Position numbers and translations under genes: made by a program
Origin: an uncultured Clostridium sp.
Lineage (GTDB): Bacteria > Bacillota > Clostridia > TANB77 > CAG-508
Reading direction: 5' to 3'
Length of the DNA stretch: 64,000 nucleotides
Assembly: GCA_948436975.1 (NCBI GenBank)
Contig: CAOJJB010000001.1
Location: 14,005 to 78,004 of the forward strand
Shown: positions 40,924 through 59,003 of the stretch, piece by piece
How positions within the stretch are numbered: the first letter of the stretch is position 1
Layout: the number at the start of each line of letters is the position of its first letter
The notes under the pieces: model-generated
Databases searched by the model: none
Told to the model about the DNA's origin: nothing
What the model saw: the letters and a program-made list of their open reading frames with translations, nothing else

Positions 40924-41195
40924 TTTTTAACTCCTATCTTTAAAAAATAATTATTATGAAAATTATTATATCAATTTTTTTATTATTTTTAAAGTATTTA
41001 TATTATAACAAAAGATTATTAAGAAAAAATAGAGAATTTATTAAGAAATTATTAATTTAATATATTAGTTATTGTAAAACATTTTAGATATAAAATTTCC
41101 AAATTTTTCTATAAAATTTTTTGAATATTTTTTTTAAAATTAGTCATAATAATATTATAAAATTTATATTAGCCTAACTTAGATATAATTTTTAT

Positions 41196-41223
41196 TAATA
41201 AGTTATTTATAAATAACTTATTA
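41196..41223. repeat. Perfect 28-bp palindrome in the gyrB / response-regulator spacer
   Basis: TAATAAGTTATTTATAAATAACTTATTA reads identically on both strands (checked by hand). Confidence 0.8.
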
Positions 41224-41662
41224 CTGATAATTATTTCGAGTAAAGATATAATTTATTGAATGAAATCCATTTAGTAAATTATGTCGGTCACAAAGAGTAT
41301 ATTATGTGCTTGATAGTTCTTTAACTTAACAATTTTTTTCTAATATAAATAAAGGATTTGAAAAGTATGTAATATATTTGAAGTTATGATTATTCTTTTA
41401 TTCAAAAGTGGTTATTTATAATCCTTTTTAGGACGAATATAGCTATTTCGAGTGGATTTATAGTCTAGCAACTGATTAGTATATGTGGTATATGGCTTAC
41501 TTGTATAGTAATATACATTAGGTCAGACTACTATGTATATTAGTTTTAGCTGAAAGTTAATATAAGTTTTATCATGATAAATGCCATAAAGTGTATTCTT
41601 TATGGCATTATCAATTTTATTCAGTTTAATTTATATTTGTTAAATTTTATATAAAATAGTAT

Positions 41663-45026: not shown

Positions 45027-46142
45027 CTATTCTTTCATTTTTATTGGCAATATCATATATATATAATCTCCTTCTCCAACAGGTCTTATTATACATGGTG
45101 ATCTATTGGTACCAAACTCTATATAAACTTCTTCATCATCTATTGCTTTTAATGCATCTAAGAAAAATCTTGGATTAAATCCTATTTCTAATTCTTTTCC
45201 TTCTGTTTCTATATTAATTTCTTCTTTTGCATCTCCTGTTTGATTAGCACAAGAAATTGTTACTTTTTCTATTTCAATTTTTATTTTTACAGGATATTTT
45301 TTTTCTTTTTCTATTGATGATGATGATATTAAAGATATTCTTTCAAAACAATTTTGTATATTATTTTTATTTACTTTTATTCTAGTTTCCCAATTTTGAG
45401 GTATTGTATTTGAATATTTTAAAAACTCACCATCTAATAATCTTGTTACTATTTTACAATTTTCCATTTCAAATAGAGCTTGGTTTCTTGATATACCTAT
45501 TTTTACAGTATCAAAAGAATCTGATATTATTTTATTTACTTCATTTAATGTTTTTCCTGGTATTACACTATTAAATGTTTTTACATCTCCATTTAATATA
45601 TGGTTTTTTATTGCTAATCTATACCCATCTACTGCTACAACATTTAATTTATTTTCATTTACTTCAAATAAACAACCAGTAAATATAGGTCTGTTTTCTT
45701 CTGTACTTACAGCAAATATTGTTTTTCTTATCATATTTTTAAGTACAGTTTGTTCAATTTCAATTGAATTATCTACATTTATTTTTGGTAACTCTGGAAA
45801 TTCATCTGGATTCATTGTTGCTAATTTATATAGTGAACCTTCACATTCAATTTCTAATAAATTATTTTCATTTATATTTAATTTAATTTCTGCTACTGGT
45901 AATCTTTTTATTATTTCACTAAACATTACAGCATTAACTACTGTTGACCCCTGTTCTTCTATTTGAGCTTCTAAAATATATTCAATTCCTATTTCTAAAT
46001 CATAAGAAGTTAATTTTAATTCATTATCATTAGTTTGTATAAGTATACCTTCTAATATAGGCATAGTTGTTTTTGAAGCAACTCCATTTATAACGGAAGT
46101 AATACCTTTTAAGATTTTTTCTTTCTCACAAATAACTTTCAT
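45027..46142 (-). CDS. dnaN: DNA polymerase III beta sliding clamp
   Basis: 371 aa, three-domain clamp pattern, immediately downstream of dnaA; C-terminal ...YIYMILPIKM. Confidence 0.93.
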   Translation of the reverse strand: MKVICEKEKILKGITSVINGVASKTTMPILEGILIQTNDNELKLTSYDLEIGIEYILEAQIEEQGSTVVNAVMFSEIIKRLPVAEIKLNINENNLLEIECEGSLYKLATMNPDEFPELPKINVDNSIEIEQTVLKNMIRKTIFAVSTEENRPIFTGCLFEVNENKLNVVAVDGYRLAIKNHILNGDVKTFNSVIPGKTLNEVNKIISDSFDTVKIGISRNQALFEMENCKIVTRLLDGEFLKYSNTIPQNWETRIKVNKNNIQNCFERISLISSSSIEKEKKYPVKIKIEIEKVTISCANQTGDAKEEINIETEGKELEIGFNPRFFLDALKAIDDEEVYIEFGTNRSPCIIRPVGEGDYIYMILPIKMKE

Positions 46143-46171
46143 TTTTTTCTCCTTTTATAAAATAATATAAA

Positions 46172-46358
46172 TAGTAGTATTAGTTATAGGTGTTGTGAAT
46201 TTGGTGGAAAAGTCTTGAATACCTTTATTTCCCTAATAAAAACTATGTGTAAAAATATGTGAATAAAATTAAAAATTATCCACTTTATTCAATATCATTT
46301 GTGAATATTGAGTTATTAACAAGATATATACATGATTTTCACAATAATATGTGGAAAT
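46172..46358. promoter_or_regulatory. oriC part 2 (dnaA-dnaN spacer): DnaA-trio-like run plus degenerate DnaA boxes
   Basis: TAG TAG TAT TAG TTA TAG at 46172-46189, 29 nt from the dnaN ATG. It is followed by GGTGT and box-like TGTGAATTT (46194) and GGTGGAAAA (46203). One-mismatch boxes: TGTGAATAA (46258-46266) and TTATCCACT (46276-46284). Weaker boxes: TGTGAATAT (46300) and TGTGGAAAT (46350). Confidence 0.55.
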
Positions 46359-46459
46359 CTTTTTAGGCTATTCCGTAAGTGTTAATAGCTCATCTTTTGT
46401 AAAAAATATGTTTGTAAAACATTTTTTTTAAAATAATTTAATATTTATTTATTTATAAA

Positions 46460-47806
46460 TTAATTAGAGTCTTGAATAATGTTTTTCACACTTTCCACAA
46501 TTAATTTTGTGTTTGTTTTTTCTTTTATTTCTTTTTCTATTTTATTTACGGCATGCATAACTGTAGTATGATCTCTATTTCCGAAATCAGCTCCAATTTT
46601 AGGAAAAGACATTTGAGTTATTGTTCTGCAAAGATACATTGCTATTTGTCTTGGATATGCAATATCATTTGATTTTTTTGAAGAAATTAAATCTTTTTTA
46701 TCAATATTAAAATATTTTGATACTACTTCTTGTATATAATCAGCAGAAATTACTTTTTCTTTTTGAAGTACAATATCATTAATAGATTTTTCAGCTATTT
46801 CTATTGTTATTTGACTATGTGTTAATGCAGCATAAGCTACTATTTTATTTAATGCACCTTCTAATTCTCTTATGTTTGAATCTACTTTTGTTGCAATAAC
46901 AGATAATATATAGTCATCTATTAATATTTTATCAGCTTGTACTTTTTTTCTGAGTATAGCTAAACGTGTTTCATAATCTGGCATAGATATATCAGCAAGT
47001 ATTCCCCATTCAAATCTAGATTTTAGACGTTCTTCTAATAAAGGAATATCTCTAGGTGGTTTATCACTAGAAATTATTATTTGTTTTCCATTTTGATGTA
47101 AACTATTAAATGTATGAAAAAATTCTTCTTGACCAGTCTTTTTTCCAGCTATAAATTGAATATCATCTATTAGTAAAACATCTATATTTCTATATTTGTT
47201 TCTAAATAATTCATTTTTATAATTAGCATCTTTTATTGAGTTTACTAATTCATTAATAAATTTTTCAGATGTTACATATAAAACTTTTGTATTAGGATTA
47301 TTTTGTATTATTTTATTTCCTATTGCATGCATTAAATGAGTTTTACCAAGTCCTACTCCACCATAAATAAATAATGGATTATAAGCTGTTGCAGGAGATT
47401 CTGAAACAGCATATGCAGCAGCTTGTGCAAATTTATTATTATTTCCTATTACAAAGTTATCAAAAGTATATTTTGGATTTAAAAAACTATTTGTGTAGTT
47501 TTCAGTTTTTACAAAATTTGTTTCTTTTTCTTCTTCAAAATTATTTTGATTTTTTTCTGTTTTTTCTATAATTTCTATTTCGCAATTTTTATTAGTTATA
47601 AAATTAAATGTGTTACAAACTAAATCAAATAATCTTGATTCTATAGCATCTTTTTGCATTTTTGAAAGTGCTACTAAAACAATTTTATTATCATTTATAT
47701 ATTGTATTTCTAAATTTTTAATCCATGTTGTATATGAAATAGTAGTCATCTCTTCTTTTAAAAGATCTTTTACTTTTGTAAGTAAGTCATTCTTATCAGA
47801 ATACAT
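46460..47806 (-). CDS. dnaA: Chromosomal replication initiator protein DnaA
   Basis: AAA+ GGVGLGKTHL, LLIDDIQF, and domain IV ...IAYPRQIAMYLCR...FGNRDHTTVMHA. Confidence 0.97.
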   Translation of the reverse strand: MYSDKNDLLTKVKDLLKEEMTTISYTTWIKNLEIQYINDNKIVLVALSKMQKDAIESRLFDLVCNTFNFITNKNCEIEIIEKTEKNQNNFEEEKETNFVKTENYTNSFLNPKYTFDNFVIGNNNKFAQAAAYAVSESPATAYNPLFIYGGVGLGKTHLMHAIGNKIIQNNPNTKVLYVTSEKFINELVNSIKDANYKNELFRNKYRNIDVLLIDDIQFIAGKKTGQEEFFHTFNSLHQNGKQIIISSDKPPRDIPLLEERLKSRFEWGILADISMPDYETRLAILRKKVQADKILIDDYILSVIATKVDSNIRELEGALNKIVAYAALTHSQITIEIAEKSINDIVLQKEKVISADYIQEVVSKYFNIDKKDLISSKKSNDIAYPRQIAMYLCRTITQMSFPKIGADFGNRDHTTVMHAVNKIEKEIKEKTNTKLIVESVKNIIQDSN

Positions 47807-47836: not shown

Positions 47837-48088
47837 TTATCCACAAGGTTGTCCACATAAAACTTGTAAAACTTACAAAATACAATATTACAAATATTAA
47901 CAATATGTGGAAAACCTAAAATTCCTTTTTATACATTATGATGATATAATATCAAAAAAAAAATAAAATATCAAGTTAAAATTAAAAATAAAATTTATTT
48001 TACTTTAGGGCGATAAGAGTTACAAATTTTATTAATTACTTGACTTTTTTAGAACAATTATAGTATAATCTATATTACTTGTGAATAA
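47837..48088. promoter_or_regulatory. oriC part 1 (dnaA-rpmH spacer): DnaA boxes
   Basis: Perfect TTATCCACA (47837-47845); one-mismatch TTGTCCACA (47849-47857), TGTGGAAAA (47906-47914) and TGTGAATAA (48080-48088). Confidence 0.7.
48040..48069 (+). promoter_or_regulatory. rpmH operon promoter
   Basis: TTGACT (48040-48045), 18-nt spacer, TATAAT (48064-48069). Confidence 0.6.
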
Positions 48089-50721: not shown

Positions 50722-52086
50722 ATGAATACTATTGCAGCAATTTCAACGGCACCTGGAATAGGTGGAATAGGAATCGTTAGAATGAGTGGTGAAAACTGTT
50801 TTAAAATATTAGAAAAAGTATTTAAGCAGAAAAAATATCAAAATATTAAAAATATAAAAGGATATTCAATTAAATATGGTAATATTGTTGATAATGGTGA
50901 AATAATAGATGAAGTATTAGTTTCTTATTTTAAATCTCCTAAAAGTTATACTTCAGAAAATATGTGTGAAATAAATTCTCATGGTGGAATAGTAATAATG
51001 AATAAGATATTAGATTTATGTATAAAGAATGGTGCAGAATTAGCTGAACCAGGAGAATTTACAAAGAGAGCTTTTTTAAATGGAAGAATGGATTTATCTC
51101 AAGCAGAGGCTGTAATAGATGTAATAAATTCTAAAACAGATAAAGAGGCTAAAGTATCAATGCAACAACTACAAGGAAATTTATCTGAAAAAATATTTGA
51201 AATTAGAAAAGAAATAATTTCAATAATGGCTGATATAGAAGCAAGTATAGATTATCCAGAATATGATTTGCAAGAAGTTACAAATGAGAATATATTAAAT
51301 ATATTGAATAAAGTAGACAAAATTCTATTATCATTAGAGAATAGTTTTTATAATGGTAAAATATTAAAAGAAGGAATAAGTACAGCTATAATAGGAAGAC
51401 CAAATGCTGGAAAATCTTCTTTATTAAATGTTATATTGAATGAAGAAAGAGCAATTGTAACAGATATAGAAGGTACTACTAGAGATATAATACAAGAATA
51501 TATTTCTGTAGAAGGAGTGCCTTTAAAAATAATTGATACTGCAGGAATTAGAAATTCAAATGACGAGGTAGAAAAAATAGGAATAAAAAAAGCGATAGAT
51601 ATAGCAAGATCAAGTGATATAGTAATAGCTATTTTTGATATAAACAGAGAATTAAATGATGAAGATAAACAGATTTTAAGCTTGTTAGAAAATAAGAATG
51701 CTATTATAATATTAAATAAAGTAGACTTAGAAAGAAAGATAGATATTAATGATATAGCTTATTTAAAAAAACCAATTGTTGAAATGTCTACTAAAAATAG
51801 GGAAGGAATAGATGAGTTATATAAAGAAATATCACAAGTATTTAAATTGAAAGAGATAGTTACTGATGGAGAAACAATTATTAGTAATGTTAGGCATAAG
51901 AATATAATAATTAATTCTAGAAAAAATTTAGATAGAGCTAGAGAAACAATTAATAATAATATGCCTATTGATATAATATCAACATATTTAAAAGAGATTT
52001 TAGAAGAATTGGGAAAAATAACAGGAGAAACTGTTACAGATGACGTAATAGCTGAAATTTTTTCAAAATTCTGTTTAGGGAAATGA
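50722..52086 (+). CDS. mnmE: tRNA modification GTPase MnmE
   Basis: IAAISTAPGIGGIGIVRMSG, G-domain GRPNAGKSSLLN / DTAG / NKVD, C-terminal FCLGK. Confidence 0.95.
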   Translation: MNTIAAISTAPGIGGIGIVRMSGENCFKILEKVFKQKKYQNIKNIKGYSIKYGNIVDNGEIIDEVLVSYFKSPKSYTSENMCEINSHGGIVIMNKILDLCIKNGAELAEPGEFTKRAFLNGRMDLSQAEAVIDVINSKTDKEAKVSMQQLQGNLSEKIFEIRKEIISIMADIEASIDYPEYDLQEVTNENILNILNKVDKILLSLENSFYNGKILKEGISTAIIGRPNAGKSSLLNVILNEERAIVTDIEGTTRDIIQEYISVEGVPLKIIDTAGIRNSNDEVEKIGIKKAIDIARSSDIVIAIFDINRELNDEDKQILSLLENKNAIIILNKVDLERKIDINDIAYLKKPIVEMSTKNREGIDELYKEISQVFKLKEIVTDGETIISNVRHKNIIINSRKNLDRARETINNNMPIDIISTYLKEILEELGKITGETVTDDVIAEIFSKFCLGK

Positions 52087-54057: not shown

Positions 54058-54606
54058 ATGTCTGTTAAAGTAACATATTTTGTTCATAGTACTACTTTAG
54101 ATAATATTGAACATAAATCAACAGGATGGTTAGATGGTGAATTATCTGAAAAGGGAATAAATCAAAGTATTCTGTTAAGAGAGCAAATAAATATAGAAGA
54201 TTTTGATGTAGTTTTTTGTTCAGATTTAAAAAGAGCAGTAGATTCTGCAAATATAACATTTCAAAATTCAGTTAAAATTGTTTTAGATAGTAGATTAAGA
54301 GAATGTAATTATGGCGATTTAAATGGAAAAGATAGTAAATTAGTAGTATATGAGGATCATATAAAAGATAAGTTTCCAAAGGGAGAAGCTTTGATTGATG
54401 TTGAAAACAGAGTAAATGAGTTTTGTGAGTTTTTACTTCAGAATTATGATAATAAAAATGTTGCAATTGTGGCACATAAAGCAACTCAAATGGCTTTTCA
54501 GGTTATTACAGAATCTAAAACATGGGATATGGTTATATCAGAAGATTGGAGAAGAACAAAAAACTGGAAACCTGGATGGATATATTATATAAATAAGGAA
54601 GATTAA
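54058..54606 (+). CDS. Histidine-phosphatase-superfamily protein with variant catalytic motif
   Basis: Aligns to the RHGxTxxN family pattern as YFVHSTTLDN (Val for Arg, Ser for Gly); downstream SDLKRA and AIVAHKAT are retained. Confidence 0.65.
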   Translation: MSVKVTYFVHSTTLDNIEHKSTGWLDGELSEKGINQSILLREQINIEDFDVVFCSDLKRAVDSANITFQNSVKIVLDSRLRECNYGDLNGKDSKLVVYEDHIKDKFPKGEALIDVENRVNEFCEFLLQNYDNKNVAIVAHKATQMAFQVITESKTWDMVISEDWRRTKNWKPGWIYYINKED

Positions 54607-54607
54607 A

Positions 54608-55327
54608 ATGAATGTAGAAGAATTTAGAGAAATTTTTATAGAAGAAGCAGATAAAAATAATATATATATTGATAAAAAAGTAATTAGTAAATTTTATACA
54701 TATATGATAGAGATATTAGAGTGGAATAATAAGGTTAATTTAACATCAATAACAGATGAAAGAATGTTTATCGTGAAACACTTTATAGATTCGCTTACAA
54801 TAAACGGTTTTATACAAGATAAAGAAACTATAATAGACATAGGTACAGGTGCAGGATTTCCTGGTATACCTTTAAAAATTGTTAATGAAGATAAAAAGAT
54901 TACAGTAGTGGATTCAATAAATAAAAAATTAAATGTTATACGTTCAATTAATAATAAAATGAATTTAAAGAATTTAGATATAATACATTCAAGAGCAGAG
55001 GATTTAGCAAGGAGAAAAGAATTTAGAGAGAATTTTGATGTAGTAACTACAAGAGCAGTTTCTAATTTTTCAACAATTATAGAATATATGTTACCATTTT
55101 TGAAAGTGAGTGGTATAGCTATTTGTATGAAGGGACCTAATTATGAAGATGAGTTAAGAAATGGGAAAAAAGCTATTAATATATTAGGTGGAAAATTAGT
55201 CGATATAAAAAAAATAAATGTAGATAATGAATTAACAAGAAATATAATATTAATAAAAAAAATAAAGAAAACACCTGAAAAATTTCCGAGAGGACAAGGA
55301 AAAGCTTTAAAAGAGCCGATTACATAA
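54608..55327 (+). CDS. rsmG: 16S rRNA (guanine527-N7)-methyltransferase RsmG
   Basis: WN.KVNLTSI, SAM motif DIGTGAGFPGIPLKI, TRAV. Confidence 0.92.
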   Translation: MNVEEFREIFIEEADKNNIYIDKKVISKFYTYMIEILEWNNKVNLTSITDERMFIVKHFIDSLTINGFIQDKETIIDIGTGAGFPGIPLKIVNEDKKITVVDSINKKLNVIRSINNKMNLKNLDIIHSRAEDLARRKEFRENFDVVTTRAVSNFSTIIEYMLPFLKVSGIAICMKGPNYEDELRNGKKAINILGGKLVDIKKINVDNELTRNIILIKKIKKTPEKFPRGQGKALKEPIT

Positions 55328-55438: not shown

Positions 55439-56233
55439 TTGGGAAGAGTAATATCAATTGCTAATCAGAAAGGTGGGGTAGGTAAAACTACGACTGCAGT
55501 AAATTTAAGTACGATATTGGCAAAAAGAGGAAAAAAAGTAATAATAGTAGATGCTGATCCTCAAGGGAATGCATCTAGTGGATTAGGATTAGAAAGAGTA
55601 ACTGAAAATTCTTTGTATGACATTTTGATTAATGATGTAAAAATAGAAGATACTTTACAAAGTGCTTGTATTAAAAATCTGAAAGTATGTCCTTCAAATA
55701 TGGATCTTGCAGGTGCAGAAGTAGAATTAGTTTCTCAAATGTCAAGAGAACAGAGATTAAAAGAAAAAGTAGATGAGATAAAAGATAATTATGATTTTAT
55801 AATTATAGATTGTCCACCATCATTAGGATTAATTACTTTAAATGCTTTTACTGCATCAGATTCTGTTCTAATACCTGTACAGTGTGAATATTTTGCTTTA
55901 GAAGGTTTGGGGCAGTTACTAAATACAATAAATTTAGTAAAAAAACATTTAAATAAGAACTTAGAAGTTGAAGGTGCTGTACTTACTATGTATGATATTA
56001 GGACGAATCTTTCAAATCAAGTTGTTAAAGAGGTAAAAAGGTATTTTGGTGATAAAGTTTATAAAACTGTAATTCCTAGAAATATAAAGCTTAGTGAAGC
56101 GCCGAGTTATGGTCTACCAATTACTTTATATGATGCTAAATCTAAAGGTGCTAGATCTTATGAGAAACTTGCTAGAGAAGTATTAAATAATGATATAATT
56201 AGAAAAAGAGAAGTATTAAAAAAGGAGGAATAA
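55439..56233 (+). CDS. soj: ParA/Soj chromosome partitioning ATPase (TTG start)
   Basis: Deviant Walker A NQKGGVGKTT, IIDCPPSLG; SD GGAGGG 7 nt before the TTG. Confidence 0.92.
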   Translation: MGRVISIANQKGGVGKTTTAVNLSTILAKRGKKVIIVDADPQGNASSGLGLERVTENSLYDILINDVKIEDTLQSACIKNLKVCPSNMDLAGAEVELVSQMSREQRLKEKVDEIKDNYDFIIIDCPPSLGLITLNAFTASDSVLIPVQCEYFALEGLGQLLNTINLVKKHLNKNLEVEGAVLTMYDIRTNLSNQVVKEVKRYFGDKVYKTVIPRNIKLSEAPSYGLPITLYDAKSKGARSYEKLAREVLNNDIIRKREVLKKEE

Positions 56234-56235
56234 AC

Positions 56236-57081
56236 ATGACAGGCAAAAAAACAGGATTAGGAAAAGGTTTAGATGCGTTGTTTAGTACACCAATGGTTGA
56301 GGAAATTACTAGAGAAGAAGATATTGTAAAAAAATTGAAAATTAATGAAATAGAACCAAACAAAGGACAAGCAAGAAAAGTTTTTGATGATGAAGCTATT
56401 GAAGATTTATCTAATTCTATAAAAGAATATGGAGTAATACAACCTATAATAGTAAGCAAAAAAGTAGGATATTATGAAATTATAGCAGGTGAAAGAAGAT
56501 GGAGAGCATCTAAAAGAGCAGGATTAGATGAAATTCCAGCAATAGTAAGAGATGATGATGAACAAAGAAATCAAGAAATTTCTTTAATAGAAAATATACA
56601 AAGAGAAGACTTAAATCCTATAGAAAAAGCTAGAGGAATAAAAACATTAATGGATGAATATAGCTTAACTCAAGCACAAGTTGCTGAAAAATTAGGAAAA
56701 AGTAGAAGTAGTATAGCAAATACAGTAAGAATATTAAATTTAGATGAAAGAGTAATAAATTTAGCTTTAGAGGGAAAACTAACAGAAGGACATTGTAAAT
56801 CATTAATGGCTATTGATGATCATGATAAACAATATCAAATGGCTACTTATATAATTGAATCAGGGGATTCTGTTAGAGAAGCTGAAAAGAAAATGAAAGT
56901 AATTAAAAAGGTAAACAAAAAAAATGATAGATACATACCAATCTATAGGGATATAGAAAATACATTTCAAGGTTTTTTTGGTACAAAAGTAAAGCTAGAT
57001 GCTGGAGAAAGAAAAGGCAAAATAATAATACAATACAGCTCTAATGATGATTTAGAGAGAATTTTAGGTTTAATAAAATAA
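56236..57081 (+). CDS. spo0J: ParB/Spo0J chromosome partitioning protein
   Basis: ParB boxes (QPIIV...YEIIAGERRWRA), HTH (LTQAQVAEKLGKSRSSIAN). Confidence 0.92.
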   Translation: MTGKKTGLGKGLDALFSTPMVEEITREEDIVKKLKINEIEPNKGQARKVFDDEAIEDLSNSIKEYGVIQPIIVSKKVGYYEIIAGERRWRASKRAGLDEIPAIVRDDDEQRNQEISLIENIQREDLNPIEKARGIKTLMDEYSLTQAQVAEKLGKSRSSIANTVRILNLDERVINLALEGKLTEGHCKSLMAIDDHDKQYQMATYIIESGDSVREAEKKMKVIKKVNKKNDRYIPIYRDIENTFQGFFGTKVKLDAGERKGKIIIQYSSNDDLERILGLIK

Positions 57082-57096
57082 GGAGAGATTAAATAT

Positions 57097-57624
57097 ATGA
57101 GTAGTATTTTAGAACTATTAGAAAATGAAAATTATGTATTGGCTATTGTTATTGTAAATATTATATTAATAATAGTAACAATCATTAATACGATTTTAAT
57201 AATAAGAGCAAATGGAAAATATGTAAAATTTATGAAAAAATTAGGTAATGGATCTAATTTAGATGAAATGATGAAAGATTATATAAAAGATGTTAAAGAA
57301 ATAAAAAAAGATAATGCAGAAATTAAAGCATATTATACTAAATTAGATAGTGATATAGCTTCATGCATACAGAAAGTAGGGCTAGTAAGATATAACGCTT
57401 TTAAAGATGTTGGAAGTGATTTAAGTTTTGCTGTAGCATTATTAGATAGAAATGATAATGGTGTGGTTTTAAATGGATTATATGGTTCAGAGTCTTCAAA
57501 TATTTACGCTAAGCCTATAAAGAAAGGTGTATCATCATATAAATTATCAGAAGAAGAAGAATATGCTTTAGAAATAGCTGAACAGTCTAAAAACTTTATT
57601 GCTAAGAATAGAGAGAATATGTAA
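57097..57624 (+). CDS. DUF4446-family membrane-anchored protein
   Basis: N-terminal TM plus a conserved ...VGLVRYNAFKDVGSDLSFAVALLD..NGVVLNGLY.. core; the usual gene after spo0J in Clostridia-like genomes. Confidence 0.7.
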   Translation: MSSILELLENENYVLAIVIVNIILIIVTIINTILIIRANGKYVKFMKKLGNGSNLDEMMKDYIKDVKEIKKDNAEIKAYYTKLDSDIASCIQKVGLVRYNAFKDVGSDLSFAVALLDRNDNGVVLNGLYGSESSNIYAKPIKKGVSSYKLSEEEEYALEIAEQSKNFIAKNRENM

Positions 57625-57940
57625 TTAGTGAAATTTAAAAAGAGAATATAGGTGATAGATTTTTTATCTGTCATCTATTTTTTTTATAAAATGCTAGTAG
57701 AATGAAAATAATAATAGTAATAAGATATATATTTTATAATGATAAAGTAGTTTTAAAATCAAAAATAAGAGGTTTTTATAATAAAATAATAAAAGTATAG
57801 CAATTTATAAATAAAAATGATAATTAACGATTTTAATAATAATTAACATTTTTATTTATTATTAAAAAATATTTTTATAAAAGTACAATATGTAATAAAG
57901 TTGAGATAATTTTTTTTTGTAAAAAATATGTAAAAAAGCA

Positions 57941-58539
57941 TGTGGATTTAGGGAAAAAGCTGTGGATAACATTAAAAAACTATAAAAAAATAAATTTAAA
58001 AATCAAAAATTAAAGAAAATGAGAAAATAAAAACTATGTGAATAAGTCCACAAAAAGTTGATATATTAAGGGTTTTGTGGCTGTGGATAAAGTTTGAAAC
58101 ATACACATAAATAGGAAAGTGGTTAAAAGAAAAAAATATTATAATTTTTAATACTAAAGTCAATTATAAGTGAGTAATAGTTTAAAATTTTAAAATAATG
58201 TATATAGAGAAGATATAATTATGGAAAAAATTTAATAAAAGATAAGAAAAGTAATGTGGAAAAAATTATAAAAAGTTGTAAAAATGAGTAGTATATAATA
58301 TTATATGGGTTTTGGTAATTAATACTTTTTAATAAAAAAAAATATTAATAGAAAAAAATATTTTTTATTAATAAATATGTAAAATTATTTTATTTATAAC
58401 ATATAATTAATAAAAAAAATTAATAATTAAGATAAAAAGTATAATATAAATAAAAAAATTTTTAAAAAAAATTTTTTTTTGTTTAGTATAAATTTAATAA
58501 AACGTTGTAAAATAAGTAAAAAAATAAAAATGTGGATAA
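57941..58539. promoter_or_regulatory. Secondary co-oriented DnaA-box cluster
   Basis: Three perfect TGTGGATAA (57961-57969, 58082-58090, 58531-58539), one-mismatch TGTGAATAA (58037-58045) and TGTGGAAAA (58255-58263), and weaker TGTGGATTT (57941-57949). All are in the same orientation. Confidence 0.65.
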
Positions 58540-58686
58540 GTTTTTCTTAATAATTTTAAATTTGCAATTTTTTTCAAAAAAAATTGATAAAATTTCATTT
58601 TAGAAAAGGTTAAGTAATAAAAAAATAAGAAAAAGTATAGAAAAATGTATACAACAAAATTTGAATAAAAAAATATCAAAATTTTA

Positions 58687-58716
58687 TTGACAAATATGAA
58701 AGATATGTGCTAATAT
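58687..58716 (+). promoter_or_regulatory. Promoter for the tRNA-Ser pair
   Basis: TTGACA (58687-58692), 17-18-nt spacer, CTAATAT/TAATAT (58710-58716), about 28 nt before the tRNA 5' end. Confidence 0.6.
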
Positions 58717-58743
58717 ATATGTGTTGTTAATAAAACATCAAAT

Positions 58744-58835
<92 letters not shown>

Positions 58836-58908
58836 ATAGAAAATGGAAGCAGAGAAAAGGTGTTTTAAAGCTTCCTTTTTTATTATAATATCTAATATAA
58901 GAGCATTT

Positions 58909-59001
58909 GGAGATTTACCCAAGTGGTTGAAGGGGACGGTTTGCTAAACCGTTAGGGTTGCGTAAGTGGCCGCGAGGGTTCAAATCCCTCAATCTCCGCC
59001 A
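58909..59001 (+). tRNA. tRNA-Ser (anticodon GCT), long variable arm, CCA encoded
   Basis: GGAGATTTACCCAAGTGGTTGAAGGGGACGGTTTGCTAAACCGT...GGTTCAAATCCCTCAATCTCCGCCA; anticodon loop TTGCTAA. Confidence 0.92.
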
Positions 59002-59003
59002 AA

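Follow-up and report, generated by a model that had tools for sequence, protein, structure and literature searches.

A candidate DnaA-box cluster near the replication origin of an uncultured gut Clostridium

The DNA analysed here, a stretch of 64,000 nucleotides from contig CAOJJB010000001.1 (hereafter the window), belongs to an uncultured gut Clostridia organism near 'Candidatus Scatovivens', whose GC content is about 23%. Between the soj-spo0J operon and a pair of tRNA-Ser genes, it contains a group of predicted binding sites (boxes) for the replication initiator DnaA, which lies outside the origin, oriC. We propose that this group is a genuine extra-origin, origin-proximal DnaA-box cluster which titrates DnaA or regulates initiation, and which has been selected in one very AT-rich clade of gut Clostridia; we give this proposal a probability of about 0.55. 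The argument is built on the boxes, their statistical excess, their conservation and the canonical DNA-binding domain of the organism's DnaA, from which we infer that DnaA occupies the cluster and that initiation may be affected.

Six predicted boxes and their conservation

The boxes, and the spacer that contains them, are the following.

57941..57949, - strand: weak DnaA-box-like 9-mer with two mismatches, AAATCCACA (TGTGGATTT on +), starting 20 bp before the start of the first perfect box
57961..57969, - strand: perfect DnaA box, TTATCCACA (TGTGGATAA on +)
58037..58045, - strand: DnaA box with one mismatch, TTATTCACA (TGTGAATAA on +), perfect to the relaxed consensus TTATNCACA
58082..58090, - strand: perfect DnaA box, TTATCCACA (TGTGGATAA on +)
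58255..58263, - strand: DnaA box with one mismatch, TTTTCCACA (TGTGGAAAA on +), the commonest recurring variant in the equivalent spacer of relatives
58531..58539, - strand: perfect DnaA box, TTATCCACA (TGTGGATAA on +), about 150 bp 5' of the tRNA-Ser promoter
57625..58743, no strand: AT-rich non-coding spacer from DUF4446 to tRNA-Ser, 1119 bp, GC 15%, holding all six boxes

A first reading, made from the sequence alone, had described three perfect boxes, two with one mismatch and a weaker one in a gene-free AT-rich tract about 10 kb from dnaA, and all of this is borne out. When the 9-mers are compared with TTATCCACA and TTATNCACA, three perfect TTATCCACA, one TTATTCACA and one TTTTCCACA are found; the cluster is 10.1 kb from the start of dnaA; the spacer (A 50%, T 35%, G 11%, C 3.4%) is part of 2783 bp without any open reading frame (ORF) of at least 90 aa (57625-60407), by far the longest such gap in the window. 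The hand estimate of the same reading, about 0.01 perfect boxes by chance, matches the 0.009 that we calculate for the spacer from local composition on both strands, against three observed. The perfect boxes are 150-fold above an order-1 Markov expectation, and outside the cluster the window has just one, at 47837, in the rpmH-dnaA spacer. The box at 57941 may be a chance occurrence: two-mismatch boxes are not enriched in the tract across species.

Eight to ten metagenome assemblies, made independently, contain the window sequence (identity 99-100%), so that the cluster is not an assembly artefact; the contigs of the same species (L081-L090) are likewise 99-100% identical to the window. An alternative haplotype of the spacer has about 18 variant positions, which all miss the boxes, several of them by 1-4 nt; this is not significant, as 0.9 box hits are expected by chance. 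In one strain, a segment of about 80 bp between the boxes at 58082 and 58255 is substituted or shortened (window 58144-58223, L082:11047-11121).

Domain IV of the DnaA encoded in the window was aligned with those of E. coli (1J1V, a domain IV-DNA complex) and B. subtilis (8BTG). The AYPRQ, FPKIG and RDHTTVMHA segments are kept, and the residues that contact bases in E. coli DnaA (R399, P423, D433, H434, T435 and H439) are present in the organism's own protein. Canonical DnaA specificity is to be expected from established structural knowledge.

Relatives were collected by a ParB-anchored scan of representative genomes, which returned 80 loci with ParB 63-92% identical; the window's clade consists of Candidatus Scatovivens-like metagenome-assembled genomes, with ParB at least 82% identical. 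Most of the 80 relatives have about 70-150 bp between DUF4446 and tRNA-Ser(tga), against 0.15-2 kb in the window's clade. Judging from these lengths, the spacer at 57625-58743 is a lineage-specific expansion.

The equivalent spacers of 14 species were screened de novo, tRNAs and their promoter being masked, for 9-mers that occur in at least four species. Of the 623 9-mers tested, TGTGGATAA ranks first (13 observed vs 0.10 expected, in 10 species) and TGTGGAAAA ranks second (16 vs 0.33, in 8 species). TTWTCCACA reaches a density of 1.66/kb where the gene-free tract is nearest to oriC, and of 1.32/kb on the oriC side of the loci; its density falls to 0.07/kb, a 24-fold lower value, in the compositionally similar farther part of the tract, and the word is absent from the 68 kb of intervening genes and from 29 kb to the right.

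The comparison between L003 and L004 is particularly clear. Both have the same four 9-mers in the same order; three of them align column for column, and the fourth, shifted by the aligner, is matched through the common right flank TTTTCTTAA. Outside the boxes and tRNAs, the spacers of these two species are 65% identical. The window's box at 58531 appears to be orthologous to the tRNA-proximal boxes of L003 and L004, as it has the same right flank and is about 200 bp 5' of the tRNA. In other species the positions of the boxes differ and the flanks cannot be aligned. Conservation in relatives, which the sequence-only reading had named as a check, is thus found both in the top rank of the 9-mer in the spacers of 14 species and in boxes that are invariant amid poorly conserved flanks. 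The boxes are probably binding sites kept by selection, with turnover between species.

The strict count of TGTGGA[TA]AA in the oriC-proximal part of the tract is four in the window, L003, L004 and L005, three in L015, two in L017, one in L013 and zero in L014.

In the sister clade (L019, L020, L023, L024, L027 and L031; ParB 76-80% identical, GC 29-35%), strong boxes occur elsewhere, from -7100 to +560 relative to the end of parB. In L023 and L024, the jag-mnmE spacer is expanded and holds three perfect boxes in one orientation, at the place of the thdF-jag cluster of B. subtilis; these two loci also have boxes between parB and DUF4446 and one just past DUF4446. In L023, L024 and L027, the 3' portion of rsmG carries two boxes and the 5' portion of parB a convergent pair. 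Boxes at constant positions of mnmE (+155, +854 and +1079) are common to most of the six loci and are probably constrained by coding; the window has TGTTGATAA at 50886. Ten distant relatives (L044, L047, L051, L060, L062, L063, L066, L069, L071 and L075; ParB 64-68%) have one perfect TTATCCACA, in the opposite orientation, +2160 to +4000 past the end of parB, in the spacer that follows three ORFs, each of about 120 aa, which are possibly rpsF-ssb-rpsR.

The origin and the surroundings of the cluster

The gene order was taken from ORFs and Pfam hits stored for an identical contig. On the + strand it runs rpmH, rnpA, yidD, yidC, jag, mnmE, mnmG, a His_Phos_1 gene, rsmG, soj, spo0J and DUF4446. 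The features that matter for the discussion below are these.

45027-46142, - strand: dnaN
46143..46459, - strand: dnaA-dnaN spacer, probable unwinding half of oriC, with dense one-mismatch boxes, AT-rich next to dnaN
46460-47806, - strand: dnaA
47807..48154, no strand: rpmH-dnaA spacer, the other half of oriC, with a perfect box at 47837 and one-mismatch boxes at 47849, 47906 and 48080
55439-56233, + strand: soj
56236-57081, + strand: spo0J
57097-57624, + strand: DUF4446 gene, 175 aa
57648..57678, + strand: terminator-like hairpin and T-run closing the soj-spo0J-DUF4446 transcription unit, the sole terminator-like site in the region (0.1 expected)
58687..58716, + strand: sigma-70-type promoter of the tRNA-Ser pair (TTGACA, 18 nt, TG-extended TAATAT), invariant in 8 species (alignment A1)
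58744-58835, + strand: tRNA-Ser(tga)
58909-59001, + strand: tRNA-Ser(gct)
59002..60407, no strand: gene-free tract past the tRNA pair, with no DnaA boxes and one copy of TGGGAAATAAG (59527-59537)
60408-61808: AAA_14/DUF4143 ATPase gene, followed by a large BcrAD_BadFG/DUF2229 gene on the - strand

The cluster had been placed downstream of the soj-spo0J operon; it is indeed 3' of the operon, but the DUF4446 gene sits between spo0J and the tract. The bipartite oriC that had been recognized in the spacers flanking dnaA, with its one perfect box, is correct. The cumulative GC skew has its minimum at 46-48 kb, at dnaA/rpmH, where the orientation of the genes also switches. From 48 to 62 kb the skew is strongly positive (+0.37 to +0.42 over 56-60 kb), including in the non-coding DNA that flanks the cluster on both sides, and the strand composition does not switch at the cluster.

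A DnaA-trio array, TAGTAGTATTAGTTATAG, is present at 46172-46189 in the dnaA-dnaN spacer, 3 nt from the box-like TGTGAATTT and GGTGGAAAA (the whole spanning 46172-46211). It is the only 18-nt stretch of the window with at least four in-phase TAG triplets; no TAG-type array was found in 57600-60400 or adjoining any box of the cluster. The complement of the array, CACCTATAACTAATACTACTA, is very close to CACCTACTACTATTACTACTATGA, the DnaA-trio of C. difficile oriC2, for which DnaA-dependent unwinding has been demonstrated (PMC7561715), and 46172-46211 marks the likely unwinding site. The suggestion that the cluster could be a displaced part of the origin is therefore unsupported: the skew minimum is at dnaA/rpmH, the skew is positive on both sides of the cluster and the sole trio array is in the dnaA-dnaN spacer. 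The cluster at 58 kb is not an unwinding origin.

In the window's clade, the tRNAs are followed by 3-7 kb of gene-free, purine-rich DNA (A>T, G>C) in otherwise compact genomes. This long non-coding tract is seen in L003, L004, L005, L013, L014, L015 and L017, from about +540 to +4400..+7800 relative to the end of parB, and the contigs of many relatives stop inside it. Two explanations for the absence of genes were tried and rejected. Hidden genes or pseudogenes were looked for with six-frame segments of at least 25 aa from the tracts of eight species, and reciprocal tblastn found nothing conserved beyond the tRNA block; an rRNA operon could have accounted for the gene-free stretch and for the contig breaks of relatives, but no rRNA was found. 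Besides the two tRNAs, no Rfam family is detected in the tract, either at the gathering cut-off or with E up to 1.

The part of the tract that follows the tRNAs has an over-represented, strand-specific motif of its own, (C)TTGGGAAATAAG, which is confined to this tract within the clade; TGGGAAATA occurs 16 times, in 7 of 8 species, vs 0.34 expected. In L003, L004 and L005 (L003:13200-17450, L004:14000-17400, L005:14200-18300), TTGGGAAATAAG recurs every 350-550 bp and forms a degenerate tandem array whose units are all on the + strand, each of them having (C)TTGGGAAATAAG after a TATAAAAAA-like stretch. The copy at 59527-59537 is the only one in the window. No conserved RNA structure is predicted at the motif (RNAalifold gives 0 pairs in 20 copies), and neither coding potential nor an Rfam match is found in the array. 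A common origin of the box units and the TTGGGAAATAAG units was considered and rejected: an nhmmer profile of 25 unit cores finds more post-tRNA units and no box unit significantly. GGGAAATA, an 8-mer of TTGGGAAATAAG, would equal a half-site of the Noc-binding sequence of B. subtilis, which is a lead only; the window contains no Noc-binding-like palindrome within 3 mismatches and no noc gene between rsmG and soj.

The canonical parS TGTTNCACGTGAAACA is absent from the window, spo0J included (the positions concerned are 52088, 54765, 55331 and 62003); the best parS-like site, TGTTTATCGTGAAACA, has 2 mismatches and lies at 54765, inside rsmG. The His_Phos_1 gene (182 aa, 54058-54606) is inserted between mnmG and rsmG in an otherwise conserved origin-proximal block. 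No other species has its gene-free tract broken up by the AAA_14/DUF4143 gene; strain L082 shows two ORFs, of 259 and 220 aa, in its place (L082:13306-14713), probably because of a frameshift. In strain L089, the identity to the window stops at 58836, and a different gene, of 498 aa (L089:2589-4369), lies 1.5 kb after DUF4446. These differences show that the tract beside the tRNAs varies between strains. Last, in the left replichore, 739 bp at 40924-41662 contain no ORF of at least 90 aa and have G>C on the + strand, opposite to their surroundings.

Titration of DnaA and competing explanations

In the mechanism that we favor, each strong box would bind DnaA whatever nucleotide DnaA carries. 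The locus, 10 kb to the right of oriC, would be replicated almost at once after initiation, so that its copy number would double early; the doubled locus would then withdraw or otherwise handle DnaA near the origin, and re-initiation would be damped. Such damping has been proposed for the oriC-proximal DnaA-box clusters (DBCs) of B. subtilis and for datA of E. coli. The number and strength of the boxes, rather than their exact position, appear to be conserved, which is easier to reconcile with a sink or a dosage effect than with a precisely built nucleoprotein complex. The cluster might in addition be coupled to the transcription of the tRNA-Ser operon next to it, as happens at datA of E. coli; the two roles are compatible.

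The common orientation of the boxes had been pointed out in the first reading. All boxes do face one way, but this is explained by base composition and is not independent evidence: the + strand of the spacer has 3.3 times more G than C, and this skew favors TGTGGATAA over TTATCCACA there. Among the one-mismatch boxes of eight species, the enrichment is 7-fold for the orientation of the cluster and 14-fold for the reverse.

Several observations weigh against our proposal. The cluster is dispersed: the gaps between successive boxes are 11, 67, 36, 164 and 267 bp. In Ishikawa 2007 (PMC2533591), A is obtained by adding up the affinities of four successive boxes and dividing by the mean distance between them; the stably bound sites of B. 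subtilis consist of four or more boxes at close spacing, and all have A >0.3, with mean distances of 4-21 bp. The best A is 0.12 in 57600-59200, and it is 0.11 for 57961-58263, below this threshold. It is 0.40 in the dnaA-dnaN spacer but only 0.096 in the rpmH-dnaA spacer, so that the threshold of 0.3 may not transfer to this genome. The claim of a DnaA-box cluster outside oriC holds in that the cluster is real and, in all probability, selected, with a box density equal to that of oriC and next to none in compositionally similar DNA farther on; it has to be tempered in that the array is far looser than the DBCs of B. subtilis. Two-mismatch boxes occur 1.05 and 0.99 times as often as expected, hence the sequence gives no sign of a DnaA filament formed cooperatively. 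Three to five monomer sites also make only a small sink. L014, which has variants of the TGTGAATAA type in place of strict boxes, and L013, with just one strict box, show that the feature is not indispensable. The species of the enrichment test are related, and the Poisson P values overstate their independence. Even in B. subtilis, only 2 of 6 DBCs measurably affect initiation, and the sites of this uncultured host are predicted DnaA boxes. As for the DNA between the boxes, A-tract phasing gives a 10.5-bp peak of z = 5.7 with one choice of limits and z = 1.8 with wider ones, against a weak null model.

A tentative alternative, to be taken seriously, is that the boxes are mainly transcriptional, DnaA acting as a transcription factor or a roadblock around the tRNA-Ser pair. 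It could insulate the tRNA operon from read-through of soj-spo0J-DUF4446, limit the read-through of the tRNAs into the tract, or make the output of tRNA-Ser depend on the status of replication; this would be compatible with a sink, as most DBCs of B. subtilis do both. In almost all species of the clade, a TGTGGA-type box lies about 100-330 bp 5' of the tRNA promoter, which is itself invariant, and most relatives have a further box 37-154 bp past the second tRNA; at the DBCs of B. subtilis, DnaA is known to act as a transcription factor, and E. coli datA is just 3' of the tRNA-Gly operon, where DnaA binding attenuates tRNA read-through. On the contrary, no box overlaps the -35 or -10 element of the tRNA promoter (the nearest in the window is about 150 bp 5'), the distances between box and promoter differ among species, and the species of the window has no box after the tRNAs. 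Promoter-like sites in the tract are at chance level (42 vs 34 +/- 6 in shuffles), only the tRNA promoter stands out, and no other transcript is known. It is improbable, on the other hand, that the boxes have no function and are by-products of a purine-rich, fast-evolving junk spacer or relics of local duplications. It is true that the tract is non-coding, expands and contracts between species and adjoins tRNA genes, which are common insertion sites, that the co-orientation of the boxes tracks the G>C skew, that two boxes of the window share a GC dinucleotide and a weakly similar 34-nt flank (family D3), and that the count falls to one and zero in L013 and L014. Against a neutral origin stand the 24-fold lower density in 29 kb of farther tract of the same composition, the excess over the Markov expectation, the invariance of the boxes between L003 and L004, and the fact that the same 9-mer is otherwise confined to oriC.

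The tandem array raises two other hypotheses. The 9-mers could be bound by another protein, or be a variant of the motif that fills the tract, and not be specific to DnaA. The post-tRNA tract of relatives is built of units of about 350-550 bp, each with the strand-specific TTGGGAAATAAG; the DnaA boxes of L003 and L004 continue the quasi-period of the array, and one box (L003 gap coordinate 1530) is placed at the motif position by the hidden Markov model (HMM) of the unit. But this match lacks significance (E = 7.5), and none of the other box units is matched; the 9-mers agree exactly with the DnaA consensus or are the most frequent of its functional variants, and oriC is populated by these very words, whereas TGGGAAATA differs from a DnaA box at three positions. 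We give this hypothesis hardly any credit. It is also very improbable that the boxes are the origin-facing end of a lineage-specific, 3-7-kb non-coding array round the tRNA-Ser genes, whose first units would carry DnaA boxes and later ones TTGGGAAATAAG, and that the whole organises the origin domain by loading DnaA, together with another DNA-binding protein, beside the parAB operon; such an element is not known to us, no literature search having been aimed at it. A further proposal is that the cluster is a third, displaced module of the origin, either an unwinding site or a looping partner for initiation at dnaA. It would make sense of the three perfect boxes, against one in both oriC spacers together, and of the extremely AT-rich DNA between them; bipartite origins loop, and oriCII of P. 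aeruginosa is reported to be a box cluster 5' of gidA, the first gene of the gidAB-parAB operon. Besides the skew minimum, the gene-orientation switch near dnaA and the G>C bias on either side of the cluster, this proposal meets the difficulty that the only trio array is in the dnaA-dnaN spacer, which is where C. difficile unwinds its origin. Moreover, box positions vary and counts range from 0 to 4 among close species, and no compensation between the box counts of oriC and of the cluster is visible across eight species, so that we consider it most unlikely. A DnaA-titrating or initiation-regulating cluster remains the explanation that we prefer.

Comparison with known clusters

It is well established that DnaA-box clusters outside the origin can buffer the replication initiator. 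In the literature that we found, experimental tests of such clusters concern model species only (B. subtilis and E. coli), and no such cluster is described for Clostridia. If our proposal is correct, the locus shows that the same idea is maintained in an uncultured, small-genome gut Clostridia lineage of 23% GC. The finding opens no new question. The sites have been gained, lost and moved between species and yet stay within about 10 kb of oriC, which supports the idea that origin proximity and site dosage matter above the identity of the neighboring gene. The fragment is compact (600 bp), which makes it suitable for in vitro tests of DNA binding by a Clostridia DnaA.

B. subtilis has six DBCs, mostly near oriC (gcp-ydiF, yqeG-sda, ywlC-ywlB, ywcI-vpr, yydA-yycS and thdF-jag; Ishikawa 2007, PMC2533591; Okumura 2012, PMC3245932). 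The deletion of all six leads to early initiation, and one DBC put back near oriC largely restores control, with an effect that depends on dosage relative to oriC (PMC3245932). Like these, the cluster of the window consists of intergenic consensus DnaA boxes outside yet close to oriC, in a Firmicute with the rpmH-dnaA-dnaN / jag-mnmE-mnmG-rsmG-soj-spo0J layout; it adjoins a promoter, its boxes are maintained in related species, and its position differs among relatives while it remains origin-proximal (compare the species-specific DBCs of Bacillus and, here, the sister clade). It is sparser, with a mean gap of 57-90 bp vs 4-21 bp and A of 0.11-0.12 vs at least 0.36, it has fewer boxes and no surrounding weak ones, and its neighbors are tRNA genes and not protein genes.

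In E. coli, datA also consists of a few non-coding DnaA boxes over a few hundred bp, directly beside a tRNA operon; it acts after initiation and is regulated by read-through of the tRNA-Gly operon, a feature of its context and not of its definition. On the contrary, datA requires an IHF site and a specific arrangement of boxes, and it catalyses the hydrolysis of DnaA-ATP. It is 3' of the tRNAs, whereas the boxes of the window are all 5' and downstream boxes occur only in relatives; the two organisms belong to different phyla, and no homology is implied.

The oriCII of P. aeruginosa (PMC13438810) is likewise reported to be a second DnaA-box cluster by the gid-par block near the origin, where DnaA is a regulator and not an initiator. 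However, oriCII is 5' of gidA and controls gidAB-parAB, whereas the boxes described here are 3' of the par operon, past its terminator. The bipartite oriC of Firmicutes (B. subtilis; oriC1/oriC2 of C. difficile, PMC7561715) uses the same DnaA-box words in an AT-rich setting; unlike it, the cluster has neither the arrangement of DnaA-trio and unwinding element nor the skew switch, both of which are found at dnaA-dnaN in this organism.

Overall, the locus would be closest to the DBCs of B. subtilis, in function and in layout, and more loosely related to datA; its main differences from known clusters are the loose array and the tRNA setting.

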